Notes under the pieces: model-generated
Told to the model about the DNA's origin: nothing
The model's database searches: none
The model's input: the letters and a program-made list of their open reading frames with translations, nothing else
Shown here: positions 3,870 through 61,194 of the stretch, in pieces
Numbering within the stretch: position 1 is the stretch's first letter
How the letters are laid out: each line of letters starts with the position of its first letter
Assembly: GCA_038087875.1 (NCBI GenBank)
Contig: CM075990.1
Location: forward strand, 11,100,001-11,164,000
Length of the DNA stretch: 64,000 bases
DNA from: Malacoraja senta
Taxonomy: Eukaryota
Reading direction: 5' to 3'
Made by a program: the position numbers and the translations under genes

Positions 3870-4157
3870 TGTCCCTGTCACTACTTCAAGTATTTCTTAT
3901 CAGGCAACTGAACCATCCTACTGCAACTAGAGAGCAGTCCTGAACTACTATCTACCTCATTGGTGACTCTGGGACTATCTTTGATTGGAGTTTGCTGGTT
4001 TTACCTTGCACCAAATGTTATTCCCGTATCATGTATTGATACACTGTGAATGGCTCGATTGTAATCATGTATTGTATTTCCACTGGCTGGATAGCAGGCA
4101 ACAACAAAGTTTTTCACTGTACCTCGGTACACGTGACAATAAACTAAACTGAACTGA
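3870..4157 (+). mobile_element. Rex1/Babar-like 3' UTR fragment
   Basis: Ends ...ttttcactgtacctcggtacacgtgacaataaa(ctaaa/ctgaa)n; same tail recurs antisense near 28810, 49670 and 51995. Confidence 0.7.
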
Positions 4158-4556
4158 AGGATTTCTCCATTTTCCTGTGTGTTTGTTTTTGAGAAAGTGC
4201 AATGTCTTTCCTGGCTCAATTGCTCCCCATGGCAAACATGTCTGCGCTCTGACAACAGTCATTCAGCCATTATATCTTTGTCAGAGGACAGAAACACTGA
4301 GCTAACTGAGAGAGGGAATTAGCCACAGCATATTACTGTCCAGGAATTGACACACAGGGACGTTAACACCATTTAACTGGGCAAAAGATGCAGGAGTGAA
4401 TCATGCCTTGTGCCCATCAGGTTATGTGTGTTGATTAATGCATTAAATCCAGTCATGGGTTGTGTGTACAACTGCTGGTAAAGGCAACATTTATTGCACT
4501 GAGTGAATGTCTGGGCCTTTTCAGGGACATTTTAACCACTGAATACATTGTTCTAG

Positions 4557-4852
4557 GGTGGTGCAGTGATAGAGTTGCTGCCAGAGACCCGGGTTCAATC
4601 CTGACCACGGGTGCTTGTCTGTACGGAGTTTGTACTGTACGATCTCCCCGTGACCCGAGTGGGTTTTCTCCAGGACGCTCTGGTTTCCTCTCACACTCGA
4701 AAGATGTACAGGTTCGTCGGTTAATTGGCTTGGCATGAAATGTGAATTGTCCCTGGTGTGTGTAGGACAGTGTTAGTGTGCAGGGATTGCTGGCCGACAC
4801 GGACTCGGTGGGCCGAAGGGCCTGTTTCCGCGCTGTATCTCTAAACGGAACT
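4557..4852 (+). mobile_element. HE1/V-SINE-type SINE
   Basis: A/B boxes, family body and CR1-like tail. Confidence 0.9.
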
Positions 4853-5099
4853 AATGTAAAAAGTGTGGTTGTTTATAGTCGGGGCGGGAAGGATCTAGTC
4901 CACGTTTGTGAAAAGGATAGAACTTTATTGATAGTTGATGACAAATTGATAGTTCCATTGTCATCATCAGTGAGGTTGGCTTTTTGTTCTAGATTGATGT
5001 GATTAGGTGAATCCAAGTTATCCCACTGTCGTGGTGGGATTTAAGCCCGTTGCATTGATAGTCTCGTGAAGGCCTCAAGATGACCAGTCAAATAGTATG

Positions 5100-5665
5100 A
5101 AGATGGACACAAAATGCTGGAGGCACTCAGCGGGACAGGCAGCATCTGTGGAGAGAAGGAGTGGGGGATGTTTTGGGTCAAGACCCTTCTTCAGACTGAT
5201 AGTCGGGGGGGGGGGGAGGGGAGATACAGAGATAAGAAAGTGTAATGTGTGTGAATGAGACATCAAAGGGGATGGAGATCAAGAAAATGTAGAATAGATC
5301 ATTGTTAGCTAGCAGAAGGTAACAACAAGGCACTCAGAGATAAAATGTGATCAGGGACAGTCGGACATGTCGGAGAACTGGGAAGGGGAGGGATGGAGAG
5401 AGTGGGAAAGCAAGGGTTACTTGAAGTTAAATAAGTCAATATTCATACCACTGGGGTGTAAGCTGCCCAAGGATTATGTGAGGTGCTGTTCCTCCCATTT
5501 GCACTGGGCCTCACTCTGACAATGGAGGAGGCCCAGGACAGAAAGGTCAGAGTGGGAATGGAGGGGGAGTTAAAGTGTTTTGCAACCGGGAGATCAGGTA
5601 GGTTTAGGCGGACTGAGAGGATGTGTCAGCAAAGTGATCATCGATCCTGCGCTTGGTCTCACCTG
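5100..5665 (-). mobile_element. Penelope-like element 3' part (GIY-YIG end, pLTR, decayed hammerhead)
   Basis: Reverse complement of the GIY-YIG/pLTR sequence at 25420-26010. Confidence 0.85.
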
Positions 5666-5763
5666 CTATGATTTGATATAGAAAAAAATTCCCATAAACC
5701 TGGTTCTCATGCTCTGTGCTTTTTGTTGTTTAGGCTGTCAGGCTGCCAGGAACTGGACCTCAC

Positions 5764-5901
5764 CACTTCCAGTTGCAGGTTGGTGATATCCAATAGCTTC
5801 TGCCCACAGTCCATGCTCACTCGATGTCTAAGTTCCACTAAAAAAAAAGACATGGCTGTCTGCTGCAACATTTCCTCTAAGACATTAGAAAGATTGTGAA
5901 T
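5764..5901 (-). CDS. Candidate internal exon (phase 0-0, 46 aa) of an unidentified gene
   Basis: ttgccttttctgctccag acceptor, open frame IHNLSNVLEEMLQQTAMSFFLVELRHRVSMDCGQKLLDITNLQLEV, GTG|gtgagg donor; no homolog recognised. Confidence 0.25.
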
Positions 5902-6044
5902 CTGGAGCAGAAAAGGCAACATGACTTCTCATCAACTAAACTGTGTAAAAGACTGATCAGCGTTTTTGGGACGTCTTGTACGATTGTAAGAGTCCCACAA
6001 TGGTTGGTGGAATAGATCAAGATCTTCTATCCAATCTGAATCCA

Positions 6045-6235
6045 AGACCTTTTCATAGCTCTCATTCCTCATTCTTCATAGCCCTCGTTCCTTGTACCTT
6101 TTCGTACCTCTAGTTTCCCTCTCCCCTGACTCCAAGTCTGAAGAAGGATCTCGACCCAAAACGTCAACTACTCCTTCTCTCCAGAGATGCTGCCTGACCC
6201 GCTGAGTTACTCCAGCATTTTGCGTCTACCTCCGA
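6045..6235 (+). mobile_element. Penelope-like pLTR fragment with mutated hammerhead
   Basis: ctgaagaaggatctcgacccaaaacgtc at 6138-6165 followed by the family body. Confidence 0.8.
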
Positions 6236-6349
6236 TCCAAGTTGTCAATTGATCCATTGCCCGAATGGCCATTTCGTTGCCAGTCACGAGAAATAATGAA
6301 CAGAATACAATGTCAAATCTTGAGGTTATTGATTGCAATTACTCTGTGC

Positions 6350-6622
6350 CTGGGGTTGGTCAGGTCGGGGGGGGGAGTTCCCCCCCCCCGCCACGGGGAC
6401 CATGTAATCCCGTGCTACCGGCTCAATGGTCAGATAGTCGGTGACTAAACCGTCTCCCTCACCTGGTTTGCCAGGTGAGGAGGGGGCTGTGGACCCCCAG
6501 CAGGACAAAAACAAGACCTGTCAAAGGGCGGATGAGCTCCAAGCGAGCAAACGGTCATCCAAGCTTCAGTAGAAGTTGCGATCACTGTCGTACATTGCGT
6601 TGTAAGGAGTGAAGAAAAACAT
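6350..6622 (+). other. GC-rich multi-hairpin element, possibly the 5' UTR of a non-LTR retrotransposon (RTE-like)
   Basis: At least six consecutive stem-loops, including perfect cctcacctgg/ccaggtgagg, in AT-rich surroundings; family assignment is inference. Confidence 0.5.
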
Positions 6623-8035
6623 GAAATGTAATTCTTCCCTCTCCTTGCTTCTCAAAAGAGAAGTTGTTAATTAAATTAATTAATTAATGGGTTTGATCTT
6701 CAACATTCAGAGTCCAAGGTATTACCACCCAGGAGAATGGGTCTCAGAATTTAGACAGTGGTGGTGAATAAATAGGAACTCATTTCCAAGCCAGAATAGT
6801 ATGTGCGTGGAGGGGAATATAGAGGTGGTGTGTGTGGATTTTGCACGTCTGGGAGGAGCTGCCAGAGTAGACCAGGCAAGTAAACTGAGTGCATTATAGA
6901 GATGTAGACACTGCAACCACTGTACTCCCCACTGTGTATTGGACAGGAGAAGAGTTTGTTTATTGAGAGTTTGCCTTTTGGCACACACTTCCCACTAGTT
7001 CTTGCCACTGTGTTTGATGCACATTGACATCCCCACTAAAGCATTTCCACTTCTGGCATGATCTCTGCAGGTTTCTAGCATGATTAATTAAACGTGATTG
7101 CCGGGATGCAATGCAGTCAGTACACGTTAAAGTAATTCAAATTACGCATTTGTGTGTATTCTGTGATGCATGGCACACATGAGTAGATTCTTTGAGTGAA
7201 TTGTTATTCGCTCCCCAATGCCGGGAAGTAAATGCTAACATTGGAAAGTCAAGAGTTGTAACTTAAATCACTGCAGTGAATATTAGCATCTCTGCACAGG
7301 AGAGTTATCAGTCACTAAAACTTCAACCGATGATGTTTTGTACAATTCTTGCTCTAAGCTTCTATGTAACTTCTTTACCCTCCCAACATTTAAGGAACTG
7401 TTTGACAGGTACATGGATAGGACAGGTATGGAGGGATATGGACCAAACCCGGGTAGGCAGGACTAGTGCAGCTGGGATGTTAATTGAAGAATGTCGAGGG
7501 GCCTAGAAAAAATGATTAGAGGTTCTAATTCCCTCAGCCAAAAACCAAGGGACATAATTTGAAAGGAATTGATGGAAGGATTAGAGGGGGAAAATGAAGA
7601 AAAGTATTTTAATTCAGAGATCAAGGAACCGGGAATCTGCTGCCTGAAAATGGCGGTGAGGGCAACATATTTTAAACTTTACTTGAATAAGAAATCTTTT
7701 CAACTTGTACATTCCTCTGAGGTTAGAGGAAATGGCTACTGTTTTTCGACAAGCAAGTTCTGTTATCAGAGAGGGACACAAGGAACTGCAGAAGCTGGTT
7801 TATAAAAAAAGACACAAAGTGCTGGAGTAATTCAGTGGGTTTGGCAACATCTCTGGAAAACATAGATAGGTAACATTTCAGGTCAGGATTATTTGTGGAT
7901 GAGTTAATGTAGGAATGTGTAGGGAGGTTTGGTAGGTGGCCAGCCAGTCATTGTGTGAGTGTGTTGGCTGATACTGTAACTGATTAGTTTCTTCTGGATC
8001 AGTGGTTGTGGTCGAAGACTCGCTTGTCCAAATCT

Positions 8036-8360
8036 GATTTCTGTCCTGGGCCTCCTCCATTGTCAGAGTGAGGCCCAGCGCAAATTGGAGGAACAGCACC
8101 TCGTATTTCGCTTGGGTAGTTTGCACCCCAGCATTATGAACATTGACTTCTCTAACTTCAGATAGCCCTTGCTTTCTCTCTCCATCCCCTCCCCTTTCCA
8201 AGTTCTCCCACTAGTTTTATGTCACTGCCTACATTTTTTCTCTGTGCTGCCCCCACCCCTGACATCAGTCTGAAGAAGGGTCTCGAAATGTCGCCAATTC
8301 CTTCTCTCCATAGATGCTGCCTCAACCGCTGAGTTACTCCAGCATTTTGAGTCTACCTTG
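8036..8360 (+). mobile_element. Penelope-like element 3' end (GIY-YIG C-terminus plus pLTR)
   Basis: gaggaacagcacctcgtatttcgcttgggtagtttgcacccc (LEEQHLVFRLGSLHP) then pLTR. Confidence 0.85.
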
Positions 8361-8604
8361 ATACATTGGGATTTTGATTGCTGCTCTCAAGGATGCAGAG
8401 GGCATTGTTATTTAACAGATTTTCTCAGGATTTTTATTTTGGGCTTTGAATTATCGGGGTGGGGGGGGGGGGGAAGGGGTGGCGGAGGGGCGGACAGAGG
8501 ACTGAATATCACTGGCATTGCGAGAGTTCCACTGTTTCGCTTTGAGAAAAGATCTGCCCATTGTTTCACCAGGCCGGGAACATTCCCAACTTTAGTCTTC
8601 CTGA

Positions 8605-8830
8605 AAATAGACACAAAAAGCTGGAGTAACATCAGCGGGACAGGCAGCATCTCTGGAGAGAAGGAATGGGTGACGTTTTGGGTCGAGACCCTTCTTCTTC
8701 CTGAGTCTGAGGAAGGGTTTCGACCCGAATCGTCACCCATTCTTTCTCTCCAGAGACTCTGTCTGTCCCGCTGAGCTACTCCAGCATTTTGTGTCTATCT
8801 TCAGTGTAAACCAGCATCTGCAGTTCATAC
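8605..8830. mobile_element. Palindromic Penelope-derived mini-element
   Basis: Two inverted pLTR arms meeting at the hammerhead region (~8700). Confidence 0.85.
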
Positions 8831-10481
8831 CTGACTTTAATGAGTTAGTGTTGCTTTTCCTATTGCACTGTCACATTAGATGTAAACTGCTGGCGAGACT
8901 GCAATCCAAAAAGACTCTATGTCTGTTCCACTAGACGCTGTTAATGCGCGATGTCCTTTTATCGGGGATCTGACTGCTTAGTTTGATGTTCAGGCTGTTT
9001 AAAGGAATGTAATGCAATTGACCGTATTTTGAAAAATTATATTGTGTTTCTGGGAATTTTAAAGCAGGCAGTAGGTCCTGGACCAGTTTGGAATCTGTAT
9101 GCAAAACACCCAGGGATGTTGAAGCTGAGCATGTAGAACAACTTTATGGAGCCTGGGTGGCCAACACCCACAATTTGGTTTGAATTCTGACCATGCTGCA
9201 GATACTATTGTTGCATGGCAGGAAATGTGTTGCCTGCGTTACTGCATGTGTGTATAAAACCAATTAGGAGTTCTCTGTTTGAGATTGGATTCAGAACTCG
9301 TATATCTAATACTATGCTAGTCCACGCAAACGTCTCCTTTGGGAACAAGAGGGCAGTCACTGAGCTGTGCTGGCAACTTACCACCTTTTCCTTTGACCCC
9401 ATCCTCGTGCTTGCTCCCTAGTCATACAGTATATGATCGGGTCCTTCAGCCCACCAAATCAACCTCAATAATCAACGACTTATTGACACTAATCCACAGT
9501 ATATGGATACACGATAAAGGGAATGATGTTCAGTGCAAGATGAAGTGCAGTAAAGTCGGGTTAAAGAAAGTCCGTGGGTCTCCAGTGAGGTAGACAATAG
9601 CTCAGGACCATTCTCTAGTTAATTGGCTTGGTTTAATTGTAAATTGTCCGTACTGTGCGTTAGTGTGCGGGGAACGCTGGTCGGCACGGACTCGGTGGGC
9701 CGAAGGGCCTGTTTCCGCACTATCTCTAGACTAAACTAAAAAGCACTGCCTATTGATCCACGGCTGACACTGGATCCCCGAGACAGGAACAGCCGTGACT
9801 AGCGGAAAACTGAACATCACTGAGATATTGGATGCTGCACTCGGATCAAGTTGCTTTTGCTGCAGACTTTGTTTCAAACATAATACATAACTCAGATGCA
9901 TTCATTGCCACGTGCCATCGTGTTGGCCTATTTTAAAAAATGCACTGTAAGTTGAATGTTGGCATCGTCTGCAAATTTCCACTGCGCTCCCTGTGCACCT
10001 CAAGAAGAACTATTAAAATAGCGAGCAAGTTGCCCCAATGATATGGGATCCCAATGCACAATAACAACCTTTCCAAAAAAAAAAAGCTGCCCTCAACCAT
10101 TTTCCTTTCTAATAACGCACTTTTAAATCTAATTTATTATTTTTGCCCTGTTTCTCTTTGCTGTAATAATCTCTGCTGGGCATGGATCAAGTGCATTAGC
10201 AAGAGATTTTGACAATTTTTACTCGAGCTAATTCAAAACCTGGAGACTCAGCCGTATAATCAGATAAAGTGACTATGCATCATTTTAATTATTTAAGCAC
10301 AAACATTTCAGAACAAATCTGCATGGCTGTCCACAATTAGTCTGGAAATCCACAATGCTTAAAAGGATGACTGCATTAGTTTGCTCCGTTAAATATATGA
10401 CAAAATTAAGCTTTCGGAATGACATTGTTAGTTACACTCTAGGCTCGTGGCACCTAATCAAACCACCTTCCTTTTAAGTAA

Positions 10482-10673
10482 TGTGTAGGAAGGAACTGCA
10501 GATGCTGGTTTAAACCAGATAGACACGAAAAGCTGGAGTAACTCAGGCAGTATGTCTGGAGAGAAGGAATAGATGAAGCGTCTGACGAAGGGACTCGACC
10601 CGAAACGTCACCCATTCCTTCTCTCCAGAGAGGCAGCCTGTCCTGCTGAGTTACTCCAGCATTTTGTGTCTTT
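10482..10673. mobile_element. Palindromic Penelope-derived mini-element with 15-bp TSD
   Basis: cttccttttaagtaa at 10467-10481 and 10674-10688; inverted arms. Confidence 0.88.
10582..10609 (+). ncRNA. Minimal hammerhead ribozyme core (one mismatch in helix II)
   Basis: CTGACGA-A-GGGAC-TC-GACCC-GAAAC-GTC. Confidence 0.6.
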
Positions 10674-12364: not shown

Positions 12365-12690
12365 ATTAGAGATTCCTTTATTTGTCATTCAGACCTTTCG
12401 GTCTGAACGAAATTTCGTTGCCTGCAGTCATACATATAATAATAAATAACAAAACACACAATAAACACAAATTAACATCCACCACAGTGAGTTCACCAGG
12501 CACCTCCTCACTGTGATGGAGGCAAAAGTCTTAAAGTCTCTGTCTCTTCCCTCTTTGTTCTCCCTCTGCGCTGAGGCGATCCAGGCTTCTGATGTTGTGG
12601 CCCCGCCGGGTGATGGTTAGTCAATTCCGCGGCTGAATCCGTGCTCCGCGACGGGCCGGTTCAAACTCCGCAGCCCGGGGTGGCCGAAGC
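12365..12690 (-). mobile_element. 5'-truncated copy of the CpG-rich retroposon at 37177-38030
   Basis: Near-identical reverse complement of ~37690-38025, including the GAAA-tetraloop hairpin. Confidence 0.9.
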
Positions 12691-12717
12691 TGAAGAAGGG
12701 TCCTGACCCGAAACGTC
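12690..12717 (+). ncRNA. Minimal hammerhead ribozyme core, intact
   Basis: CTGAAGA-A-GGGTC-CT-GACCC-GAAAC-GTC at the start of a pLTR arm. Confidence 0.7.
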
Positions 12718-13179
12718 ACCTATCCATGCTCTCCAGGGTGCTACCTGACCCACTGAGTTACTCCAGCACTTGGTGTATATTTGGCATCTGCACTTCTGTG
12801 TTTCTACATGGGGTTACATTCTCTTTGCTCTGTCTATAGGAGTCACCCTGAGCTTCCACTTGCCTGCCACTTTAGCTTATTGCCCCGCTGCCACTCTGAC
12901 CTCTCCTGTGTATGGCCTCCTGCAGTGTTATAACAGAGCTCAACGCGAGCTCAAGGAGCGGGATTATCTTTTGCCTGGGCAGCACTCCGAACTGAATATC
13001 GAATTCTCCAACAGTAGGTAGCTCACCATTTCATCCTATCTGTATCAGAACCTCTGCCTGTCATGACTTTGGCTCTGTTTTTCTACTTCTATCCGTATTT
13101 TCTGCCCTGTTAGGCATATCCCACAGCCTGACTATTTACAGCACATTACGCCAACACAGAAACATCATGTGGTTGTGAT

Positions 13180-13400
13180 GAACACAGAATGCTGGATTAA
13201 CTCTGCGGGTCAGGCAGCATCTCTGGAGAGTAGGAATAGGTGACGTTTTGGGTCGGAACCTTTCTTCAGAAGGTCAAGCAGGGTTCCGACCCGAAACGTC
13301 ACCTATTCCTTTTCTCCAGTGATACTGCCTGACCCGCAGAGTTATTCCAGCACTTTGTGTCGACAGTATAAGCCAGCATCTGCAGAACTTCCTACGCATA
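13180..13400. mobile_element. Palindromic Penelope-derived mini-element
   Basis: Inverted arms meeting near 13270. Confidence 0.85.
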
Positions 13401-13499: not shown

Positions 13500-13610
13500 A
13501 CTAATGTTTTACTCCCTTTTCAAGCTCAGACGAAGGGTCAGGGACCTGAAACGTTAACCGTTTCTCTTTCCACAGATGCTGCCTGACCTGCGGTGAGTTT
13601 CCTGCGTTGT
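13500..13610 (+). mobile_element. Older Penelope pLTR subfamily with decayed hammerhead
   Basis: cagacgaagggtc...gacctgaaacgtta then cacagatgctgcctgacctgc. Confidence 0.6.
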
Positions 13611-14161
13611 CTGTCATTATGACATTTCCTTCTGTGGCATCACTTGTCTGTCATTATGACACTTCCTTCCTGAGCATCAATGCTGATTGTCACCTTTGAA
13701 AACAATGTAGAGGCGAATCATCTATTAGCCTCTTTGCCACAAACAGCAACTTGCTGCCAATATGTATTTAAACGGGTGACTTTACACAGCATGCCCTGCT
13801 TTCCTTTCACTTTATTATAGATTTTAATGAAAATTTGAAATCTCCACTGATGCAAAAACCCAAATCCTACACTGGCAAACTACATCTTGACAGTTTGTGT
13901 TCAACTGTGCTAATGAACTGAATGTTTGAATAATCGAGGACTAAGGAGGGGGTTTAAGAGGAAGGTGTTGGAAAAAATGATATTATTTCTGCACTTGTTT
14001 GGGTAATATTTTATTAACATGCCATTTGATATATAAGAGTATGGAAAGTGCAGCGATGATGAATAGTTTTTCTTGATCTGTGACAGATCTTATTTTGCAA
14101 ATGTTTGACTGAAAATGAAATTTAATGTGTGCTGACTAAGTGGAATATTTAAGCAGTGTTT

Positions 14162-14337
14162 TGTAGGAAGGAACTGCAGATGCTGGTTTAAACCGAAGAT
14201 AGACGCAAAATGCTGGAGTAACTCAGCGGCACAGGCAGCATCTCTGGTGAGACGGAATGGGTGACGTTTTGGGTCGAGACCCTTCTTCAGACTGATGTCA
14301 GGCGAGAGGGATATACTTAGGTAAGGAAGTGTAAGGT
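14162..14337 (-). mobile_element. Penelope-like pLTR
   Basis: Full arm with antisense hammerhead gacgttttgggtcgagacccttcttcag (G12-to-A change). Confidence 0.85.
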
Positions 14338-14585
14338 TATCAGTCTCAAATGACTCAGTGATTGGAATCTACACAGGATACTTTAGAATCATTATCGGAA
14401 GTGAACTGGTGTAAAGATGGCAAGGCAATATCAAACACTTGGCTTTATTTTTAATTTTGTTATTGTCTTGTCGGTAGTTCCAAAAAGTGGTTGTAATTAA
14501 TATATTTAAAATTAGAAATTAACAAGCATTCCAAAACTGAGGCGTTATACTTGTCAGGAAAGATTGAATAGTCTTTGCGGAGTTT

Positions 14586-14797: not shown

Positions 14798-15214
14798 TCT
14801 AGGACTCTTTTCAATGCAAAAGAAAAAGGGGTCTTTAAAATAGCGAAAGGATTTAATCGGTCAGATTGCAGAGAATATTTCATATTTGCAGGCCAGACCA
14901 ATACTAGGACCATGAATGATAAGAAATTCTAATGAATCCAAAGGGGGTAGGATGATTTATTCAATGAAAAAAAAACTGCTGGAGGAACTCAACAGGTCAA
15001 GTAACATCAGTGCAGGGAAAGGGATGGTCGAGGTTTTGGATCGAGACCCTGCATCAGGATTGATGAATATTATTGTTTATTCATTTCATCATATGTGGGT
15101 GAACTAGTGAACTAGTTTAACGTTCAATTCTTAAATGATGTCAGTGCTTCAATTTAAAAATTCTTTTCTTATGTTAAAATTCCTCGACAGCCCTACCCTT
15201 CCCCATCACAGGTC

Positions 15215-19997: not shown

Positions 19998-20444
19998 CTG
20001 TGGTAAATGAACATCCATATTAGACTATAAATTGACGTTTAATCACTTCATGATTACTAATGCTTTAGTGTGAATGCTATTACAAATGCATCAGTGCAAT
20101 GGACCGACCACCTGCCAAAGCTGCTGCTTTAGCAGAGAGGTGATTTAACTGCTTGTAAATCACTTATTTTGTGATCTTGGTAAGGTGGTGGTGATATTTG
20201 TCAAATGGGAAAGTGGACTTTAGTCCTTGGAGTTGTACTCACTCCAAGACTGCGAGTAATTGCAGAGATAGACACAAAAAGCTGGAGCAACTCAGCATCT
20301 CTGGGGAGAAGGAATGCTTGACGTTCGAGTTGAGACCCTTCTTTAGAATCTGTTGCAGATGCTGCCTGTCCTGCTGAGTAACTATAGCTTTTTTTTGTCT
20401 ATCTTCAGTTATAACCAGCATTTGCAGTTCCTTCCTACACATAC

Positions 20445-20950
20445 AGCAATTGCAGAGAATTGTGGATGTAGCCCAGACCATCACACAGACCAGACTCCCC
20501 ACCATTGACTCCATCTCCACATCTCGCTGCCTCAGGAAAACAGCCGAGATTATTAAGGACCATTTTCACCCCAGTCATTCCCTCTTCCCCGCTCCCAACA
20601 GTGAGAAGATACAAAAGCTTAAAAACACAAACCACCAGACTCGGGAACAGTTTCTTCCCCTCTTCATCAGACTTGTGGATGGTCCTTCCATACGGTGGAG
20701 TCCGATCTTCCAACCTACCATATTGAGGACATTGCACTTTTTCTCTGTACCTGTAATACTACAATGCAGAAAAACTATATTCTGTACTCTGGCATTTTTC
20801 TCTTTGCTCTCCCTGTCATGTATGGCTTGATTGTACTCATATATAGAATGATATACAATATGATCTTCACATGATCTGATTTAATTGAATAGCACACAAA
20901 CAAAAGCTTTTCACTGTGTCTCAGTACACATGACAATAATAAATCAATAC
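20445..20950 (+). mobile_element. Rex1/Babar-like LINE 3' fragment
   Basis: QRIVDVAQTITQTRLPTIDSISTSRCLRKTAEIIKDHFHPSHSLF plus ...catgacaataataaa tail. Confidence 0.85.
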
Positions 20951-24692: not shown

Positions 24693-25419
24693 CTGTTGGA
24701 GAAATAATGAGTGAATGACACGAGGTATTTTTATTGCATAAAGCTGCCAGGGAATCAAGGCTGAGGAATTTGTCACGGGCTGCAGATCCCGCTGTATGAG
24801 CGTCATCACGTTATTGATAAGAACCTGCTGGATTTGCACATTAATTGTCCATTAAAATGCTGCAGGAAGTTCGGGCTGGTAATTAATGACATGGATAACG
24901 TTATAACATTGTGATAGATGCTTCTGTGATGCTAATGGATCACATGGTCCCAAAAATGCAGACCAAACTGTGGCACTCATTCATGGGCAAATTTTGCTGA
25001 ATGATTTTATTTAAAAGGTTTAGCTTCTTCTTTACTTCACTTTCTAACACCTGATTTCATTCCTTTTATTCCCTGTCTGGCTTTCACCTTATTTGATTTA
25101 AACCCTTGTATTGCGTTAGTTAGAAAGTCACCATTGGCCCTGGTTCTGTCCCAGAGGTTTTGTTTCATTCATTGCCTTATTATTAAGATGTATTCCCATT
25201 ATATAACAATGCAAAATTATTTTCAAGCTGAAAGGTGCAGAATAAAGTTTTAACTAACATTGTGTGCTGCGCAATGCCCCAAAGGTCCAATCCATCAAGA
25301 AACGTGCATGGTTGGTTTCCTATTCGAGTGTTCAGGTATGTAATTTCAAATCATTTTAACAGTGTTTCCTCACTGAGAATAGAATATTCTTCTTCTCTTC
25401 TCCATGTTGAACCAAACAC

Positions 25420-26010
25420 CCAGGTTGTGCGTTGTTCCAGGTGTGGACTCCTGTACATCGGCGAGACCAAGCGCAGGCTCGGCGATTGTTTCGCTGAACA
25501 CCTCCGCTCAGTCCACCTTAACCTACCTGATCTCCCGGTTGCTAAACACTTTAACTCCCCCTCCATTCCCACACTGACTTTCTGTCCTGTGACTCCTCCA
25601 TTGTCAGAGTGAGGCACAACACTCATTGGAGGAACAGCACCTCACATTTCGCTTGGGCAGCTTACACCCCAACGGTATGAACATTGACTTCTCTAACTTC
25701 AAGTAACCCTTGCTTTCCCTCTCTCTCCATCCCTCTCCCTTCCCAGTTCTCCGGCCGGTTCTACTGTCTTCGATACATTTTATCTCTGTTTGCTTTGTTG
25801 TTACCTTCTCCCAGCTAACAATGATCTATTCTACATTTTCCTTGATTTCCATTCCCTTTGCCCTGTTTTCAGTCCTTCACACTTCATTATCTATGTATCT
25901 CCCTCTCCATTGACGTCAGTCTGAAGAAGGGTCTTGACCCGAAACGTCACCCATTCCTTTTCTCCAGAGATGCTGCCTGTCCCGCTGAGTTACTCCAGCA
26001 TTTTGTGTCT
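25420..26010 (+). mobile_element. Penelope-like element 3' end: GIY-YIG endonuclease remnant plus pLTR
   Basis: VRCSRCGLLYIGETKRRLGDCFAEHLRSV...PVAKHFN; then EEQHLTFRLGSLHPNGMN; then pLTR. Confidence 0.92.
25921..25948 (+). ncRNA. Minimal hammerhead ribozyme core, intact, in a PLE pLTR
   Basis: CTGAAGA-A-GGGTC-TT-GACCC-GAAAC-GTC. Confidence 0.75.
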
Positions 26011-26219
26011 CCCCAGGTTGATTTGTTGCTGTGATATCATTTCCACAGAGAAACTCGTCTGCACCAGCACATAAGTAGCAATGTTGCAGGATTGGGTCAG
26101 CGCCTATGTATCCTGTGGCAAATGATTTCCCTTCTGATGCTGCAAAACCTTTTCTCCCTGCACAAGGTACTTGAATACCTTCAGCTTGCCAGGATGAGAA
26201 CAGTTGCAACAGCACCAGA

Positions 26220-36354: not shown

Positions 36355-36514
36355 TCACTTACGAAGGGACTTGGTTCCTCACAGGGCACAATCTCAAACC
36401 CAATATTACAAGAGATTATATTAACAAGTAAATGCTGGATGATTATTTTATAATTTAGGCTATCCATTTTAGGCTACTCCAGAGAACTGTGTCATCGGGA
36501 ACCACTCTAATTCA

Positions 36515-36850
36515 GGTCCTCCAATTTCCTGAGGTCTTGGATAGAGCTGTTCCCAAACCAGGCTGTGATGCATCCCGATAGAATGCTTTCTACGGCGCAT
36601 CTGTAGCAGTTGGTGAAGGTTGTTTGGGACATGCTGAACTTCCTGGCCCTTCTAAGGAAGTAGAGGCTTTTGTGTGTGTTCTTGGGCATAACTTCGACGT
36701 GGCTGGTCAAATAAATATTCCGAGGAACTAGGAACCTGAAGCTTTCGACCATCTCTACCTCAGTGCCATAAATGTATACCTGAGTGTGTGTCTTGCTTTG
36801 CTTCCTGAAGACAATCACAAATTCCTTTGTCTTGCTGACATTGAGAGAGA
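36515..36850 (-). mobile_element. Rex1/Babar-like RT fragment
   Basis: EVEMVESFRFL...LYFLRRARKFSM...YRCAVESILSGCITAWFGN. Confidence 0.85.
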
Positions 36851-37176
36851 ATACTCATTTGTAATTGCCCTTTGAAAGTGGTGGTGAGCCATCTATTTGA
36901 ACCGACGCAGTCCATTTGTAAAGGTACTCATCATTGTCGCTGTGTGGAAAGCTCCTTATTTAGACCCAGTATTGATAAGGGAGCTTTGACCATGAGGAGG
37001 GGGACTTGCAGATGATGGCATTCCCTCTCGTCCTGGATGTGGAGAGATTGCTGTGGGGAGATTCAGGTGTAAAAGAGCATTAACTCCTTCATCTCAAATT
37101 CATCTGTTGATTTACTTAAATGAGTTAATGGTGGTGTTGAACTCAGAGAGCAGCACTAGAGTATCACTAGATGTTC

Positions 37177-39815: not shown

Positions 39816-41899
39816 CAACACTACCCCACACACACTAGCATCTTATGTTTATACCAAGCCCATTAACCTACAAACCTGTACGTCTTTGGGGCATGGGAGA
39901 AAACAGAAGATCTCGGAGAAAATCCACGCAGGTCACAGGGAGTACGTACAAACTCCGTACAGACAAGCACCCGTAGCCAGGATCGAACTCCGGTCTCTGG
40001 TGCCGTAAGGCGGAGGCTCTACCACTGCGCCACCATGGTTCTCACACTACCTGTCTCACCACTTCCATAAGCCCACCACCCTCTGTGTGAAGATGTTGCC
40101 CCTTATTGGAGCCCCTCGGTGGAGGCAGGTTTCTCTGGATGCTTTCAAGAGAGAGCTAGATAGGGCTCTTAAAGATAGTGGAGTCAGGGGATATGGGGAG
40201 AAGGCAGGAACGGGGTACTGATTGGGGATGATCAGCCATGATCACATTGAATGGCGGTGCTGGCTCGAAGGGCCGAATGGCCTACTCCTGCACCTATTGT
40301 CTATTGTCTATTGTCTATTCTCTATTGTCTATTGAAACCCTTCAAGGAAATAGGCAATGTTTCAGGCCAAAACCATTCTTTAGACTGGAGGAAATAGGTA
40401 ACGTTTTGGGCCGAAACCCTTTGGGTTTCGGCCCAAAACGTTGCCTATTTCCTTCGCTCCATAGATAGAAACATAGAAACATAGAAAATAGGTGCAGGCG
40501 TAGGCCATTCGGCCCTTCGAGCCTGAACGGGGTACTGATTGGGGATGATCAGCCATGATCACATTGAATGGCGGTGCTGGCCCGAAGGGCCAAATGGCCT
40601 GCTCCTGCACCTATTGTCTATTGTTTATTGTCTTATGTCCTGTTTAAATCTTTCACCTCTCACATTAAACCTATGCTTTCCAGATTTTGAGCCACTTTTC
40701 TGGGGAAAAAGGCTGTGCATTGAAGCATATTTAGGCCTCTCATAATTTTATTTAACCTCTGTAAGATCACCTCTCCGTCTCCTATCCTCCAAAGAATAAA
40801 GTCCTTGTCTGCTCAAAGTCTCCCTATAACTCAGGCCCTTCGGTTCTGCTGAAAGCAAGGGTTTCTCATTGAACCTGTACCTCACCATTCTAGTGCACAT
40901 GACAATAAAGTTGACTTGATTTCTAATGCATTAACATTGACTAAACCATGGCCATCAGATGGAAGATGAGACTCAGAAAGGCACCATCTATTTGACAAGC
41001 ATATACTAGGAGAGAGCAGCTAAAACAACAAACCTCCAGAAATTAGTGTGCCCACATTTCAGCACTCGGCAATGCCTTTGACTTGATAGATGATTTTTTA
41101 ATCGTGAGTCAGTTTAGGTAACGTCATTTTTAAATGGAGTGTTAACTTGTGGTTTAAGTGAAAAGATAAATCCAAGGTGAAACTTTTCAAACTTTGAACC
41201 TCATTTTTATTAAAGGAAAAAACAATTGACTTGTTGCAAACTGTGACACAACTACTGAATAAAAGTAAAAAAAAGAGAACAACAGTGGTTTGCTTGTTCA
41301 AGTTCAGGTTCAAGATCACATTAATTATCACATACACCAATTAAGGGACAGTGATATTTGAGTTGCCATACAGCTATACAAGTAAAAAGAACGCAACACA
41401 CAATAGAATTTAACATAAACATCCACCACAGTGGAATCAGCATTTTTCACTGTGATGGAAGGCAATAAAGGTCAGTCATCTTCATCCTTTGTTCACCCGT
41501 GGTCGGGGCCTTGAACCCTCCGCAGTCGCCGCTACAGATGTTCAGGCCCTCTCGTCGGGATGATCGAAACTCCGACGTTGGGATGGATCGGAACACACTC
41601 TTGGAGTTCCCAAATCGGCCGCTTTCTGACGATGTGATGCCGATTTTCCCGAGACAGCATTGGTGGTACCATTATCAATGGTTGAGGTATCCGTTGTAGG
41701 TAATCCATGTAACAAAAAAGCTTATCAATGTACTTCGGTACATGTGACAAACTTAACATAGAAAATAGGTGCAAGAGTAGGTCATTCGGCCCTTTGAGCC
41801 AAAATCAGTGCCCCGTTCCTGCCTTTTCCCCATTTCCCTAGATTCCGTTCCGAAACAAAACAAAATTAAACTGAACTAAACTGAACCTAAACTAAAATT

Positions 41900-43093: not shown

Positions 43094-43308
43094 TGTAGGA
43101 AGGAACTGCAGATGCTGGTTTACACCGAAGATAGACACAAAATGCTGGAGTAACTCAGGGGGACAGGCAGCATCTCTGGATAGAAGGAATGGGTGATGTT
43201 TCTGGTCGAGATCCTGAGTCTGAAGAAGTCTCAACCCGAAACGTCACCCGTTCCTTCTATCCAGAGAAGCTGCCTGTCCCCCTGAGTTACTCCAGCATTT
43301 TGTGTCTA
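43094..43308. mobile_element. Palindromic Penelope-derived mini-element with 17-bp TSD
   Basis: tcttgggatgtcccatg at 43077-43093 and 43309-43325. Confidence 0.9.
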
Positions 43309-46988: not shown

Positions 46989-47495
46989 AAGTAAGTAAGT
47001 AAGTTTATTGGCCAAGTATTCACATACAAGGAACTTGCCTTGGTGCTCCGCCCACAAGTAACAACATGACATACAGTGACAGTTACAAATGACTCAGAAA
47101 ATACAAAACATGAATAATAATAAAACATTAATGATAAAACACCATTGATCAAGCATGTGAACCAACAAAATACAAGATCAAAGGGAGGCTACAGATTTTT
47201 GGCTGTTGAGTAGAGCAACTACTCGTGGATAAAAACTGTTTTTATGTCTGGCTGTGGCAGCTTTGACAATCCGGAGTCGCCTTCCAGAGGGAAGTGATTC
47301 AAAGAGTTTGTGGCCAGGGTGAGAGGGGTCAGAGATGATCTTGCCCGCTCGCTTCCTGGCCCTTGCAGTGTACAGTTCATCAATGGAGGGAAGGTTGCAG
47401 CCAATAACCTTCTCTGCCGATCGGACGATTCGCTGCAGCCTCCAGGTGTCGTGCTTGGTGGCTGAGCCAAACCAGACCATGATGGAGAAGGTGAG
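46989..47495 (-). mobile_element. Young Rex1-type LINE 3' fragment
   Basis: Uninterrupted VWFGSATKHDTWRLQRIVRSAEKVIGCNLPSIDELYTARARKRAGKIISDPSHPGHKLFESLPSGRR; AATAAA and (ctta)n tail. Confidence 0.92.
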
Positions 47496-48318: not shown

Positions 48319-50207
48319 GAACTGAAATTGTAAAAAGGGAAGAGGTGAGCCACGATTTGGATGTAAGACAGAAGGGGGGAAATGAATGGAACAAACTGCC
48401 TAGTCAAGCTGGCGGTGTTGGCAAATTGAACACCTGCATTGGGCTTTGGTGCACAAAATGAGGAAGGGTTTAGTACAACAGGCTGCTTCCCTCCAGAGAG
48501 GGAGAGGTGTGGGGACTGGAGACAGAGCATTATGTGACAGAAAACCAAAACGTTGTTCAATTGAGTGAAATATATTCTGCTCATTATCTCTGTTTGACCT
48601 CACTTACACAGTGTAACAGGTCCGACAATCATTTACATTCAGAAAATGGTACAATTCACACTTTCAGCCTATTTCATCAACAGTCTTCATGAATTATTAC
48701 TGCAGTTTCCCCTCAAGCATTGTTTAAGAACCAATTACTTTTAATAGTATTTCCTGTAATGCACCATTTTTGATGCTACAAATGTGCAGATTGAAGCAGG
48801 CATTTATTGATTGCTTCAGAGGGACAAGAAAAGTATTCAACGCACACACTCTGCCTTCCCTGAACTCACTGTCTCATCGCAGCCACAGTATAAATGATTT
48901 ATATCGGGATTAATTGGAAACATGATTAAAGTAACATTTCATATCCTCAGTGTAAATAACATTACAAGAAATCATTCATGATATAATTTCAGATATCTAT
49001 TTGTCGGAACGTATTGAACGCAACAGGAACAAGGTTCTATGGGCTATTAATTTTGCAGAGACTTTACCTGTCCTCTTAAATAATAGTGGTCGATACAAAG
49101 ACACTTGTGTTGAAGGTAGGCTGAGAAACAGAGTTGTAGCTCGGGTTGCCGTGTGTATGGTGACACAATGGATAAAGGCCACTGACTTCAATCACTCAAC
49201 CATTGTCGATGGTATTCTCAGCTGCCAGGAACTTAAACTCTGGAACTTGCTCAGCCCTCTAAAAGCTACTTCTCATATAGATAGAAGATGGACACAAAAC
49301 GCTGGAGAGAAGGGCCTGGTGACGTTTCTGGTCGAGGCCCTTATAATGTCATCCATTCCTTCTCTCCAGAGATGCTGCCTGTCCTGCTGAGTTACTCCAG
49401 CATTTTGTGTCCATCTTTGATTTAAACCAGCACCTGCAGTTCCTTCCTACACATCTCATATAGGCTGTGGGGGTAGTGCATCTCCTTACCTCTATGGAAG
49501 GGTGTCATTCAGCCCATTGGCTTTGCGCTGGCCATAAATCACATTTCCCCCACTTATTTCCCTGTGATCTATTAACTTCAGGGAGGGTTACAGCAAGGAA
49601 AAAGGCCCTTCAGCCCACTCTGTACGTGCCATCCATCAAGCACCTCTTTTTTTTACATATAATTTTGAGTTTGAGTTTAGTTTATTGTCACGTGTACCGA
49701 GGTACAGTGAAAAGCTTTTGTTGTGTGCTAACCAGTCAGCGGAAAGACAATACATAATTCCAATCCAGCCGTCCACAGTGTACAGATACATGATAAAGGG
49801 ATCATGTATCTGTATACTGATCACCCATTCAAACTAGTTCTATGTTATCCCACTTTCTTAGCTACTCCATTCATACTTTTTTTTCTTGCACAGGCCAATT
49901 GACCTGCAAAGCTACAGGTCTTTGGGATGTGGGAAAGAGAATGTGCAGCCGGAGGAAATTCACAAGGTAAATGTGCAAACTCCACATAGAAAGCATCTGA
50001 TGGTCATGGTCCAACTCGGGTCTTTGGTGCTATGAGGCAGCAGCACTAGGGGCTGTGCCACTATGCCACTCTCATTACTGTGTTTCTCACCCTACCTCAT
50101 TTTATTCTCCCCACTTCTCCCCAAATACTACCACTCGCGTGAAGCAATTTACAGTCGATCAATTAACATGTGGGAGGAAACAAGAGCAACCAGAGGAAAT
50201 CTACATG

Positions 50208-50478: not shown

Positions 50479-52081
50479 CATATTGTGAGAATGCGCAAAT
50501 TCCACGTAGAAAACACTGGAGGTCAGGATTGAACCACTTTGAGGCAGCGGCTCTACTAGATGTACCATTGTGCTGTCCTTCACACATGCCCATCAACATC
50601 TCTATCACTCTCCCACCAACCACATGCAGGTAACTTTCAATAACCTACAAACCAGCATGTCTTTGGGATGTCGGAGGAAGTCCATGTGGCCACAGTGAGA
50701 ACGTGAAAACTCCATACAGATAGCATCTGAGTTCAGAATTGAACCCAGGTTCCTGGTGCTGAGAGACAGCTTCAGGGCCGATAGAGTGCCGAGCTTTTGC
50801 TTGCCGGTCCTAACATCATCTCTTGTGACTCGGTCGCACTTTTTGTTCAATGGTTGCTCCTTTGCGATACTACACTATCTTCACGATGTGTGTTAGAAAC
50901 ACAACTTCCTGTTGTTGAAATGGGGATGGAGAATCAACATCCCTCCACATTGGTTCTGACATACGCCATATCCGAACCAGTGAAACAGCAAACAGTTCAA
51001 ACATGGGATGACTTTTCCGGTCAAACACACTTTGTCATCTGCACTGCTTACCATCTATTGCCTTGATAAGTACTCTGCAGTTATTTCCAACTCTGTAATA
51101 AATGTTCCTTCAGCTTGTTCTATCAATCTCTTGAAAATATCCAAATAGTGCTCCACAAGATTTGGTGTTAAATACATGCCTAAGCCAGAAGGATTAGAAG
51201 GCAAAGATCGACACAAAAAGCAGGAGTAAATCAGCAGGACAGGCAGCATCTCTGGAGAGAAGGAATGGGTGACATTTTGGGTCGAGACCCTTCTTCAGAA
51301 TGACCCTTCTTCAGCCTGTCCCGCTGAGTTACTCCAGGTTTTTGTGTCTATCTTCGGTTTAAACCAGCATCTGCAGTTCTTTCATACACAGAAGGCAGCT
51401 ATGAAGGCACATAGGAAGAGATTATTTAACTCCTGACGTTGTTTTATGGCTGACCTCCATGTATATTTTTCTTCCTCAAGTCCTTAACACAGTCAATGAA
51501 CACAATCTGTCAATTTCAGATTTACAACTAAGGATTGAGCCAGCCATGCTTGCCATTTTGTGGAAGAGAATTCCAACCTTTGATCCCCAATGCGCGCTGA
51601 TTAATTTGGAAACCACTCCGGAAAGGCCTGATGCAGATATTTGGATCACATTCCTGCTCCTCGAATCCAGCCGGACTGTGTAACGTTACTGAAAGATTCA
51701 GATGGCAAAACTAATGAATGAAGGATGATTTATTTACAACTGCTGCACGACCCCAGGATAAGTGTGAATTTGTCATCATTCAGAACATTTCCAGACGATT
51801 TATTATTTCATGGTGTTATGAGATCGGATTGGTAAAGTGTGGTCCAAGCTGATGACCAATGGTTTTCACAGCAACGACTACAGTGCACAATTATAGATGT
51901 GGATGGGCCAGGTAAGAACATGTGATTTCCTTCTCTCAGAGGCTTTAATTGGGTTTTTTCTGATAACCCAAAAGTTCCATGATCATTGATACTGAGTTTA
52001 GTTTGGTACGGTACTTTATTTGTCACGTGTACCGAGGTACAGTGAAATTCATTTTTGTTTACAGTTCAGTATAAGTGTCAC

Positions 52082-52727: not shown

Positions 52728-53301
52728 AGTGTCACTATACATAAGCACTTAGATAAGATAGACATATTGGATAAGCATCTCAGATATAGTACAAGTGTCC
52801 AACAGTTGTACACCGAGACAGTATACAGAGTCGCCAGTTTGGCACCATTTTCAAGTCCCAGTTGTTGTAAGTGCAGGGATCTTGATCAGACCATGAAGGT
52901 CTGTTGTTCTGGCGGCGTTGCAGGGTCAGCCTGGCCAAGCGTAGCCATGTTGTCCTCCGCCACTACTCCTTTATTCTCACGTGCACTGAGATACAGTGAA
53001 AGGCTTTTGTTGCCTGTTAACCAGCCAGCAGAAAGACAATACATGATTGCTGATGCTGTTTTCTTGAATAATTTTGGATTAATTAGTCAAATTTGATTAC
53101 CCGAATCATGGTTGGGTTTGAATTAGTCTCAGATCATTACGCTAGCATTACTAGGTTGGCGATGCAGCCATTACAGGAACCTACTATTCCAGAGCTCTTG
53201 CTACTGCACTTTTAAACTCGCATATTTGCTAATTGATATCCTATATTACCTGTACTTGGATTTTCAAGAAGGCTCTCATCCCAAAATGTCACCCATTTCT
53301 T

Positions 53302-53329
53302 CTGAAGAAGGGTTTCGGCCCGAAACGTT
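53302..53329 (+). ncRNA. Minimal hammerhead ribozyme core, second subfamily
   Basis: CTGAAGA-A-GGGTT-TC-GGCCC-GAAAC-GTT; helix II retained through G-U pairs. Confidence 0.68.
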
Positions 53330-53499
53330 GCCTATTTCCTTCGCTCCATAGATGCTGCCGCACCCGCTGAGTTTCTCCAGCACTTTTGTCTATCTTCGAT
53401 TTTCCAGCATCTGCAGTTCCTTCTTGAACAACCCATTCCTTCTCTCCAGGGATGCTGCCTGTCCCACTGAGTTACTCCAGCTTTTAGTGTCTATCTTTG

Positions 53500-57734: not shown

Positions 57735-57945
57735 ATGTGTATGAAGGAACTGCAGATGCTGGTTTAAACCGAAGATAGACACAAAATGCTGGAGTAGCTC
57801 AGCGGGACGGGCAGCATCTCTGGAGAGAAGGAATGGGTGACGATTCGGGTCGAAGAAGAGTCTCGACCCGAAACGCCACCCATTCCTTCAGTCCAGAGAT
57901 GCTGCCTGTCCTGCTGAGTTACTTCAGCATTTTGTGTCTATCTTT
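57735..57945. mobile_element. Palindromic Penelope-derived mini-element inside a CR1 tail
   Basis: Inverted arms; atatggaggga duplicated on both sides. Confidence 0.85.
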
Positions 57946-58758: not shown

Positions 58759-61194
58759 TGCCATGGAACAGCAAGGCAGATAATGGAATATGAGTGTGGG
58801 CTATTTAAATAGAATGAAATTGGGGGGGGGGGGAGGGGGGGGGAAGCAGATCAAGTGAAGGCTGATTATTTTGTGAGAGATTGAAACCTTTTATTCTGTA
58901 TTTTCTGAAATAACTGAACATTGGCTATTCCACTGTTTAAAAATTTGGGGAGAATTTTATGTTGGAGCATTCTTTCTAGCACTTTCCTAAATTTCTACTG
59001 GAAATTCGGATTAGCTCAACTGCAGTGTTTTAAGATACATGAAAATGAGTGCAAAATCATTCAAGTCAACCTTAATTTCAATCATAATTTTTTGCCGAGA
59101 GTTGTGAGCGGACATTTCTGGGTCGAGTTATCCTTCAGTTGAGGTGATCTACACCTTCAGATGCATGTAGAGGAACAATTGCTCGACTTTAAGGAAAATA
59201 ACGGGATGTGTCCCCATCACCCGACTATAAAAAAATGTTCCTCACTCAGTATGAAAGAATGTTGTCACATTGCTGTTTGTTGGAGTTTCCTGTGTAATAC
59301 CACTCCAACAACTATAAAGTACTGATTCAGATGCAAAGTATTTGTTCTTGTGCAACATCTTAAGCTGATGCGGTAAAAGTTCAAGTTGTTGTTTTCTGTC
59401 TGTGTACTTTGGCACAAAAGTAGATTCTCTGAAGCTATGGAATATATGAGAGAGACTTGGTGTTCTTTACCCACAAATGAAAATATAATGTGAAGGAAGA
59501 TTTATTACAGCTCCAAAAGCTTGGGTGAAATTAACCCATCGGACCATTCTTACCCTGCGTTTCGTGACATTAATCTTCTGAAGCCCAGCAGGTGTGAATC
59601 CTGCCAACATTTTATTGTCTGTGCATTAGTTTGCACTTAATCACACTCTGCTAGAGGTACTGTAATAGGTATGTCTTTTGAATTGTCAAGATAGTGAGTC
59701 TTTAGGTGCACCAGTGAGTGAAAAGCATCCAGTTCAATAACATCAACAATTGTATTTACCTAGTGTTCTGGAAATGCCTTCATAAATCTTTCCATCTCTC
59801 CTTCTGTAAGACCCATCTGTCACCTGTTCTAATTTTGCTTGGTATTACATTTTGTTTCACTATGCTCAGAAAGGCATTTTGGAATGCTTCAAAGGTTAAA
59901 AAAATGCCCAAAAAAGCTCTGAAGCTGGTGAATGATTTGGGTTAGGATCAGTCTTAATCAAACAGAGGTTGAAAATGTTTAATTCACTTGCTGTAATCTT
60001 CTGGCACATAATCAACAGTAACATGCTTATAATGTAAGTGTTTTAGTGCATAATATAGCCAAATAATGTTTAGCTGCGATAATAAAGGCATTAATAAAGT
60101 CCAGAGATATGGAGGGGTAAGGAGTGAAAACGATAGATCAAAGCAGATGCTGGTAAGGAAATGTAGAATGGTTTGTTGATAGCTGAGGGTTAGTTGTATG
60201 CCTTTTTGTCATCTTCCCCTCAGCTAACAATGAGCCGTTCTAAAGTCTAGTATAAAGGAAAGAGTTTCAGCACAGATGAGGCAATGCAGTGGGAGAGTTG
60301 GGTGAAATGGACACAAAATGCTGAAGTAACTCAGCGGGACAGCTAGCATCTCTGGATAGAAGGACTGGATGATGTTTCGGGTCGAGACTCTCCTTCAGAT
60401 GACCCGACCGACTCGTCTTGACCCGAAACGCCACCCATTCCTTCTATCCAGAGATGCTGCCTGCCCCGCTGTGTTACTCCAGCATTTTGTGTCTACCTTC
60501 AGTGCAAACCAGCATCTGCAGTTCCTTCCGACACATTATTGTGATGGAGATGGGTGGTATTATTGAGCTAGGCTTAGTGATTCCAGGGATACGTGTTCTG
60601 AAATTCCACTCTGGGTCAGCTGTGACATAAATGTTACAAATGGACTGTCTCAAGTTGAGACAACTGCCGAAGAGAAGGATGAAGCTGGTGATGCTAAATG
60701 AAGGCAATGGCCCTGCGAATTACAACCCCCACATAAATGCAAATCTTAGTTTTCAGCCCGGAATGGAATTTTCCTCTCAATCTTCATGATTTAAACTGCA
60801 GCCAAGAAGTCTGTTTTCGGCAAATACTTCATCTCAGCTCTTTTTACTTGGTTTGCTTAAAATTGTTGGCGTTGAGAATGAAGGTCACGATAGCGGGTGC
60901 ACAATTCACTGATCAACAGCTGCAATGGTTTCTAATGTGCCGTGGGAAGCCACACAACTTCCCTGCAGGTAGTTTGAATTCCCACTGCTTTACCTTATGC
61001 ACCAGTACTTAAAAAGCAAGGGAGTATCATTCTGGAAATGACAAGGACCAAGGAGTCATCTTCACAGTTTCCTGCTGGATGCATGATCAGCCGTGAGGAA
61101 TGCCTCAGTCTGTGGTCCTCTCCTCTCTTGAGTTTGAAGGTTATACATTTCTACATCGTACTTCAGCAACTTGTGCATTAAATCGGGGACTCAC

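Follow-up and report, generated by a model that had tools for sequence, protein, structure and literature searches.

Short hammerhead-bearing copies in a skate genome are probably dead-on-arrival ends of a Penelope-like element

The 64-kb stretch of Malacoraja senta DNA analysed here (the window) carries many short copies of a hammerhead-like motif, which raises the question of what these copies are and whether they still act as ribozymes. A first-pass annotation had derived them from Penelope-like elements (PLEs) and had suggested that they are latent ribozymes in host pre-mRNAs and may behave as retrozyme-like parasites. We favor, with a probability of roughly 0.8, an account in which they are dead-on-arrival ends of an EN+ PLE, produced by internal priming and fold-back insertion and followed by neutral decay.

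A 5′-truncated PLE insertion at 25428-26011, with an identical 9-letter target word at either end, provides the reference for the family. It has the following parts outside the ribozyme:

25419..25427, + strand: left target-site duplication, 9 bp, identical letters flanking both insertion ends
25428..25706, + strand: 3′ end of the PLE ORF (found by tblastn), a GIY-YIG endonuclease remnant with CxxC, YIG and His residues, the stop codon last
25707..25917, + strand: pyrimidine-rich spacer (3′ UTR or upstream pLTR), differing between subfamilies
25951..26011, + strand: remaining pLTR to the common 3′ end; 3′ ends at 26008-26010, this copy being without tail
26012..26020, + strand: right target-site duplication, identical letters flanking both insertion ends

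The GIY-YIG remnant is frameshifted near 25565-25600, and tblastn with the homologue P0010 matched it in two frames with 74% and 56% identity (E 2e-24), the 74% stretch corresponding to P0010 residues 359-404. Among the 29 homologues, those with names belong to Leucoraja (skate), Hypanus (stingray), Rhincodon (whale shark) and Mobula (devil ray). P0010 consists of RVT_1, a C-x4-C-xx-C linker and GIY-YIG; it passes the Pfam cut-off for GIY-YIG, its RVT_1 match is weak (E 9e-5, below the Pfam cut-off), and the 58-aa window piece alone matches no Pfam family. No RT portion of the PLE was found in the window, where tblastn of P0010 matches residues 359-451 only. The proposed PLE origin of the motif-bearing copies is borne out by the linkage of the motif downstream of this remnant and by the shark and ray protein homologues, and on its GIY-YIG C-terminus and insertion anatomy the element is classed as an EN+ PLE.

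It is probably a Neptune-type PLE of cartilaginous fishes, a clade assignment taken from the linker motif in homologues. The CX2-5CxxC linker between RT and EN is present in the homologues P0005, P0010, P0014 and P0019, and this region is truncated away in the window. RT, this linker and GIY-YIG at the C-terminus make up the layout given for Neptune in the accessible part of Craig et al. (2021, PMC8557442), where the linker is also common to Nematis. As a separate observation, a GT word resembling a donor site overlaps the ORF stop codon at 25698-25710, and a pyrimidine tract with AG closes the spacer, compatible with a possible intron; no supporting skip across the spacer was seen in the best 15 of 1263 contig joints.

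The ribozyme itself is arranged as follows:

25919..25950, + strand: minimal type I hammerhead, fitting the consensus in the accessible supplement of PMC4209133; sole copy with everything intact; covariation in relatives
25919-20 with 25949-50, + strand: helix I of this hammerhead, 2 bp
25921-27, + strand: hammerhead core, followed by the extra A at 25928
25929-32 with 25937-40, + strand: helix II, 4 bp, 4-nt loop
25941, + strand: G12; the palindromic ACGT of helix III lies at 25944-47
after C25948, + strand: predicted scissile bond

Helix III is the bare palindrome ACGT and helix I is about 2 bp, both as previously described. Helix II had been drawn as 5 bp with a 2-nt loop; because the steric minimum of a hairpin loop is 3 nt, we read it as 4 bp with a 4-nt loop. 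The assignment as a minimal type I hammerhead in which A9 is followed by an additional A agrees with the published PLE consensus. Like the minimal hammerheads of PLEs (Cervera and de la Pena, PMC4209133, seen in part), the copy has the CUGANGA core, the extra nucleotide after A9 that is a conserved trait there, GAAA, G10.1-C11.1, a palindromic 15.2-16.2 and NUH; thousands of dispersed truncated copies and opposite-strand pairs are likewise known for that group. A 2-bp helix I is shared with the rows for Culex, D. virilis and Oikopleura in Fig. S3 of that paper, the U-A and G-C pairs of the window being weaker than the two G-C pairs of those rows. An Rfam scan of the window gave no hammerhead match at E up to 1.

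As an independent test, public contigs were scanned with a relaxed pattern that left helix I and position 17 free, yielding at least 128 matches, at least 121 of them with flanks; the stretches came from metagenome contigs (at least 121) and genome contigs (1). These loci represent related PLE families and not the window family (best blastn match 32 nt), and a PLE protein was matched by tblastn in 24 of 122 loci among the matches listed. Among the matches listed, 121 of 121 had C, U or A at position 17. Across 30 family representatives, the first three helix I pairs were paired in 83 of 90 cells (30, 29 and 24 of 30 individually) compared to a shuffled mean of 44, with 0 of 10,000 shuffles reaching 83 and slid registers giving 5-13 of 30 per position, figures that are not probabilities, as the rows are related and some near-identical families were left apart by clustering. 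An alignment of 21 rows, made up of two window copies and a hand-picked set of 19 from the 30 representatives, was 89.8% paired versus 68.3% when shuffled and held 33 double changes versus 15.3, again not to be read as probabilities. A-U/U-A and G-C/C-G swaps are plain in the helix I register of the window; three helix II pairs were fixed by the search pattern and are uninformative on covariation, and in the window family itself helix I has only 2 bp. Because helix I, unconstrained by the pattern, covaries in these metagenome-contig relatives, the hammerhead fold is genuine at the family level, and the motif is a real structured RNA within this PLE lineage.

The strict skate-type pattern had 0 matches in viral and 0 in metagenome contigs, and a protein search with the frame across the ribozyme gave 4 matches and no cross-species reading of helix I. 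Divergent PLE hammerhead pairs, as in the window, occur in the metagenome loci L008, L021 (760-920), L052 and L064, with the cores 25 nt apart in L008 and L021. Another PLE-type hammerhead, L122, lies in a contig assigned to a bacterial MAG; it is similar to an animal-type family of other loci and probably represents host DNA in a bacterial bin.

How often does the motif occur in the window? Allowing up to 3 mismatches, it was found 19 times, with 0 matches expected from 100 shuffles, which confirms that it is real. Thirteen of the 14 decayed copies named previously lie within 1 base among these matches, and the fourteenth (22783) was recovered too. A profile search built from eight window copies extended the set to 55 matches covering 5,545 bases, about one per 1.2 kb, in keeping with the high density reported before. 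The mean divergence from the consensus is 12% (49 of 55 matches long enough). There are 32 matches on the plus and 23 on the minus strand. Copies are thus present on both strands as stated, but this largely reflects the two arms of single head-to-head insertions, since 32 of the 55 matches are arms of 16 such pairs. Examples are listed below; pairs are given without strand:

5100..5684, - strand: second long truncated copy, GIY-YIG remnant, G12>A
8599..8831: head-to-head pair, tail on + arm
10484..10672: head-to-head pair, - arm tailed, flank duplication of 15 letters, near-intact core at 10582
12690..12799, + strand: solo stub with C3 as its first letter and an intact core, but no helix I
13177..13389: head-to-head pair, + arm tailed
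14162..14410, - strand: truncated copy with spacer, G12>A, full ~40-nt tail
43094..43308: head-to-head pair, - arm tailed, flank duplication of 17 letters
49272..49451: head-to-head pair, + arm tailed, flank duplication of 10 letters
51202..51390: head-to-head pair, + arm tailed, flank duplication of 8 letters
53301..53430, + strand: tailed stub of subfamily B, inserted into an older copy of subfamily A (53264-53504)
57738..57940: head-to-head pair, - arm tailed, flank duplication of 11 letters
60304..60533: head-to-head pair, + arm tailed

A decayed head-to-head pair at 40346-40466 belongs to subfamily B; both subfamilies thus make fold-back inserts. Older, more divergent hammerhead stubs at 13526-13618 and 14973-15057 have C or U at N7 and differ in the letters after the cleavage triplet, and are probably further subfamilies.

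The 40-nt tail is present on exactly one arm in 13 of the 16 pairs and on both arms in 0. Flank words of 7-17 letters are shared in 11 of 18 inserts examined, the 7-letter cases being weak. Non-consensus letters are shared more often by the two arms within a pair (0.041 per site) than by other arms (0.015 per site; p 0.0003, for the 15 of 16 pairs of sufficient length), and this excess of shared rare letters therefore points to one source per insertion. Scoring by eye placed the stronger truncation on the tailed arm in 10 of 13 pairs (p 0.09). Rfam miRNA matches in the window fall on fold-back inserts or simple repeats, all below the gathering score.

An adjacent inverted truncated copy, 5′ truncation, a tail of 30-40 bp at one end and target duplications have been described for EN+ PLEs including Neptune (PMC8557442; Arkhipova et al. 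2013, PMC3846280; both in their accessible parts), and by these features (inverted arm, one-sided tail, target duplication) the short copies carry the PLE insertion signature. Unlike described EN+ PLEs, most window insertions comprise only the last 90-135 nt, with 5′ ends clustered at the ribozyme start; such clustering was not found stated in the accessible parts of PMC8557442 and PMC3846280.

This clustering concerns positions 25918-25921, the first four bases of the ribozyme, where 12 of the 55 matches have their 5′ ends, a count inflated because alignments tend to stop at the variable spacer start and including 2-3 doubtful ends (29011, 15057, 17351). Under uniform ends the simulated maximum was ~6 (P 0.00005-0.0007). 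At 25947-51 there are 4 of 55 ends, one of them the nested break at 53431 and two from decayed alignments. The scissile bond is spanned by 45 of 55 matches, so the templates were mostly uncleaved, and the 3′ ends in the window lie at ~26010 or at the tail end. In contigs of four public runs, the top loose ends among the best rows are at 25916 (pyrimidine-rich, other subfamilies), 25918-25919 (unrelated flanks) and 26007-26010 (tail); at 25949 there were none among the matches listed. The terminal 90 nt are ~5-18 times deeper than the EN part in runs X6 and X8, a depth that does not equal copy number. In the metagenome families the 5′ boundaries are more spread out, as judged by eye. One sequence element coincides with the pile-up:

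25916..25922, + strand: initiator-like TCAGTCT; 5′ ends of short copies pile up at 25918-25921

We take this word to resemble the Inr consensus. An internal TATA-less promoter has been reported for Penelope of D. virilis (PMC2377424, seen in part). We tentatively propose, as a possibility somewhat short of even odds, that PLE transcription begins three bases upstream of the core of the ribozyme and that the 90-135 nt stubs are the equivalent of strong-stop cDNA, inserted singly or as twin-primed pairs. With such a start the RNA's 5′ end would be the hammerhead itself, so that helix I could not exceed 2-3 bp.

With the same PLE origin, the pile-up could instead mark a 3′ splice site (pyrimidine tract and AG before 25920) or a point at which the cDNA folds back, which we consider rather unlikely. 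Six of the 12 piled ends are at 25920, directly after AG, and a D. virilis intron ends at helix I (PMC4209133, seen in part), but copies starting at 25920 share no upstream exon letters, and no GT..AG skip was seen in the best 15 of 1263 joints, from runs only guessed to be RNA. Folding back would agree with the predicted minimum-energy fold, which pairs 25920-23 with ~25965-68, with opposite-strand joints that, among the matches listed, link 25916-19 to 25954-60, and with self-priming as proposed in PMC3846280 (seen in part); however, the solo stubs 12690, 53301 and 61878 start at the same place without fold-back.

Returning to dead-on-arrival ends of an EN+ PLE, we envisage the following course. 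The hammerhead would belong to active master elements and be kept there by selection, as the covariation indicates at the family level, and its job would most likely be protein- or dimer-assisted processing of the element's own RNA. Reverse transcription would use uncleaved RNA and initiate within the pLTR, downstream of the ribozyme, at either boundary of the 40-nt tail. The majority of cDNAs would reach a length of just 90-135 nt and go no further than the ribozyme's first bases, a stop that probably marks the RNA's 5′ end, and the stubs would be run-off cDNAs from the internal priming site to this end. Either both target strands would be primed or the cDNA would fold back, and two arms of the same source would become joined head to head, with the tail on one arm. 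The inserted stubs would then decay neutrally, catalytic G12 fastest because it lies within a CpG.

Several of these steps have counterparts in an anole PLE (Frangieh et al. 2024, PMC11167929, seen in part), where two internal RT starts bound the tail, both target strands are extended, uncleaved RNA is used and the hammerhead cleaves only with protein. The window copies resemble this Anolis Poseidon element in RT starts that lie downstream of the hammerhead and delimit the tail, in an uncleaved template and in the extension of both strands, and they agree with the internal-initiation model because the scissile bond is mostly spanned and the 3′ ends lie at ~26010 or at the tail end. In contrast to Poseidon, whose ORF starts inside the ribozyme, the window lacks any 5′ part of the ORF, and the element belongs to another clade, probably Neptune.

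Could the short copies instead form a self-propagating non-autonomous family, either a circular-RNA retrozyme or a MITE-like palindrome? We consider this improbable. Short copies far outnumber long ones, at least 251 contigs in run X6 lead from 26009-26010 back to 25916-21 and possibly represent head-to-tail units, and PLE-derived retrozymes have been reported in one chondrichthyan (bioRxiv 10.64898/2026.07.22.740005, seen in part). The X6 joints, however, contain intervening letters of no known identity and make up a small share of 318,387 contig pieces (best 15 of 1263 joints). Palindrome centers and flank duplication lengths vary between inserts, the tail is one-sided, and the units do not start at the cleavage site, as circle-derived monomers might. 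In the accessible part of the same preprint, a non-LTR retrozyme is a tandem of units each with a complete hammerhead. Derivation from PLEs, lack of coding capacity, a type I hammerhead and many monomers are features in common, whereas none of the 16 tandem-repeat rows of the window has a hammerhead-bearing unit; the copies in the window fall outside the retrozyme definition because no tandem unit with the motif is present. The suggested retrozyme-like behavior is accordingly not supported, the short copies showing the PLE insertion signature. A MITE was rejected, as the centers differ, the tail is one-sided and the duplications range over 7-17 letters, versus a uniform unit with symmetric terminal inverted repeats and a fixed-length duplication.

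The remaining question is whether the dispersed stubs can still cut. Gap-free coverage from C3 to C17 was found in 24 of 55 matches, 8 of which keep all 11 core letters, and the core together with helices I, II and III is kept in 1 of 55, the 25921 copy. Three cores had been described as intact, at 25921, 12690 and 53302. All three have the core letters, but the native helix I 5′ strand is missing at 12690 and 53302 because both begin at or next to C3, and their flanks do not restore both helix I pairs.

G12, inside a CpG, is changed in 17 of 43 arms, 16 of these being G>A. The remaining CpG letters show changes in 52 of 216 cases inside the ribozyme and 21 of 90 downstream (23-24%); G12 is therefore not protected, as its change rate is at least that of other CpG letters. 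Non-CpG core letters are changed less often than downstream ones (18 of 352, 5.1%, versus 310 of 2689, 11.5%, p 0.0001), a difference that shrinks when sites with ≥20% variation are dropped (18 of 352 versus 171 of 2223, 7.7%, p 0.10). We read this as selection on master subfamilies; weak selection on copies is also compatible. The earlier impression that loop II varies while pairing is kept turned out to reflect for the most part decay at CpGs (C>T at 25935 in 11 of 42, G>A at 25936 in 5 of 43), the remaining subfamily-B change being one-sided, from U-A to U.G.

In ViennaRNA models, which ignore the tertiary core and protein help, the 25921 copy has probabilities of ≤0.05 for helix II and ≤0.001 for helix I in four contexts, and its hammerhead-compatible fold reaches -12.8 versus -18.3 kcal/mol, a cost of 5.5 kcal/mol. 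The ACGU duplex contributes -1.7 kcal/mol. All six head-to-head inserts that were folded form long hairpins (-95 to -169 kcal/mol). Pfam recognized no host exon over all 417 stop-to-stop frames of ≥55 aa, a length below which exons would escape; the single match above the cut-off was ALKBH8_N at 36510-36854.

That the stubs are latent ribozymes cutting host pre-mRNAs by dimer pairing is the least probable reading, very unlikely even though matches are dense, a third of the gap-free cores keep all their letters and a related PLE hammerhead cleaves given protein (PMC11167929, seen in part): a single copy is complete, its hammerhead fold is improbable, G12 decays at the CpG rate, ACGU pairing is weak, paired inserts fold into hairpins, core-intact same-strand neighbors are >2 kb apart, published metazoan minimal hammerheads are poor cleavers even as dimers (PMC4209133, seen in part), and no host exon was recognized among the frames searched. 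Because the stubs mutate freely, they are unlikely to work as ribozymes in host RNAs. After insertion their decay looks neutral, and few could cut a host transcript.

Other features of the window were noted in passing. The open frame at 36510-36854 (-) with the ALKBH8_N match and the ORFs at 47181-47630 (-), 47794-48186 (+) and 20378-20827 (+) look like 3′ fragments of LINE reverse transcriptase. The GC-rich region 52085-52720 has long stretches of G and of C and inverted ends that are alike, and by eye it looks like a non-autonomous DNA transposon. P0031, a RefSeq skate gene model (outer dynein arm-docking subunit 3-like), contains a translated PLE repeat end, likely an annotation artefact.

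On the minus strand, 2737-2899 is a single-copy insertion of 162-163 bp with an 11-12 letter flanking duplication (2910-2899, 2736-2725), in a host sequence that is presumably a LINE 3′ fragment. It starts with an HDV-like ribozyme (28.3 bits in the window scan, gathering 35, E 0.002), in which 18 letters of P3/L3/P1 are identical to the Rfam mammalian CPEB3 consensus. By eye, P1 has 6 bp, the 7-bp P2 is unlike the CPEB3 letters, and there is almost no P4. The insertion begins at the predicted cleavage site, as in ribozyme-capped non-LTR elements. No CPEB exon motif was found at the insertion, and all 8 viral matches of the 18-mer lack the helices, as judged by eye. In the literature searched, including the accessible part of PMC12415542, we found no report of a CPEB3-like ribozyme in a mobile element of cartilaginous fishes. 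Such a core could bear on the origin of the mammalian ribozyme, and this insertion is possibly more interesting than the PLE stubs.

For the hammerhead family of skates and sharks with solo or head-to-head pLTRs, no paper was found in a search that covered few subscription journals. The PLE family is probably already catalogued in Repbase/Dfam. Supplement file 2 of PMC4209133, as far as accessible, has 0 matches for shark, Callorhinchus or Leucoraja; its supplement file 1 and the supplements of the retrozyme preprint may list a chondrichthyan family. Extrapolated from the density in this one window, and under different criteria, the copy number would greatly exceed the 4,000-9,000 listed for coelacanth and Xenopus in the accessible part of PMC4209133.

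The analysis adds cartilaginous fishes, at very high copy number, to a ribozyme family described in 2014, and indicates that its dispersed copies enjoy no protection against loss of the catalytic base. It also carries a warning, as fold-back inserts score as microRNA precursors in Rfam scans and enter gene models. The stub ends match the in vitro internal-initiation model for PLEs and sharply predict a transcription start. If the start-site reading is true, shark and ray genomes would hold, by extrapolation, about a million stub events, and the stubs would be a natural record from which one could map where RT starts at its two sites, where transcription starts and in which order the two priming steps take place.
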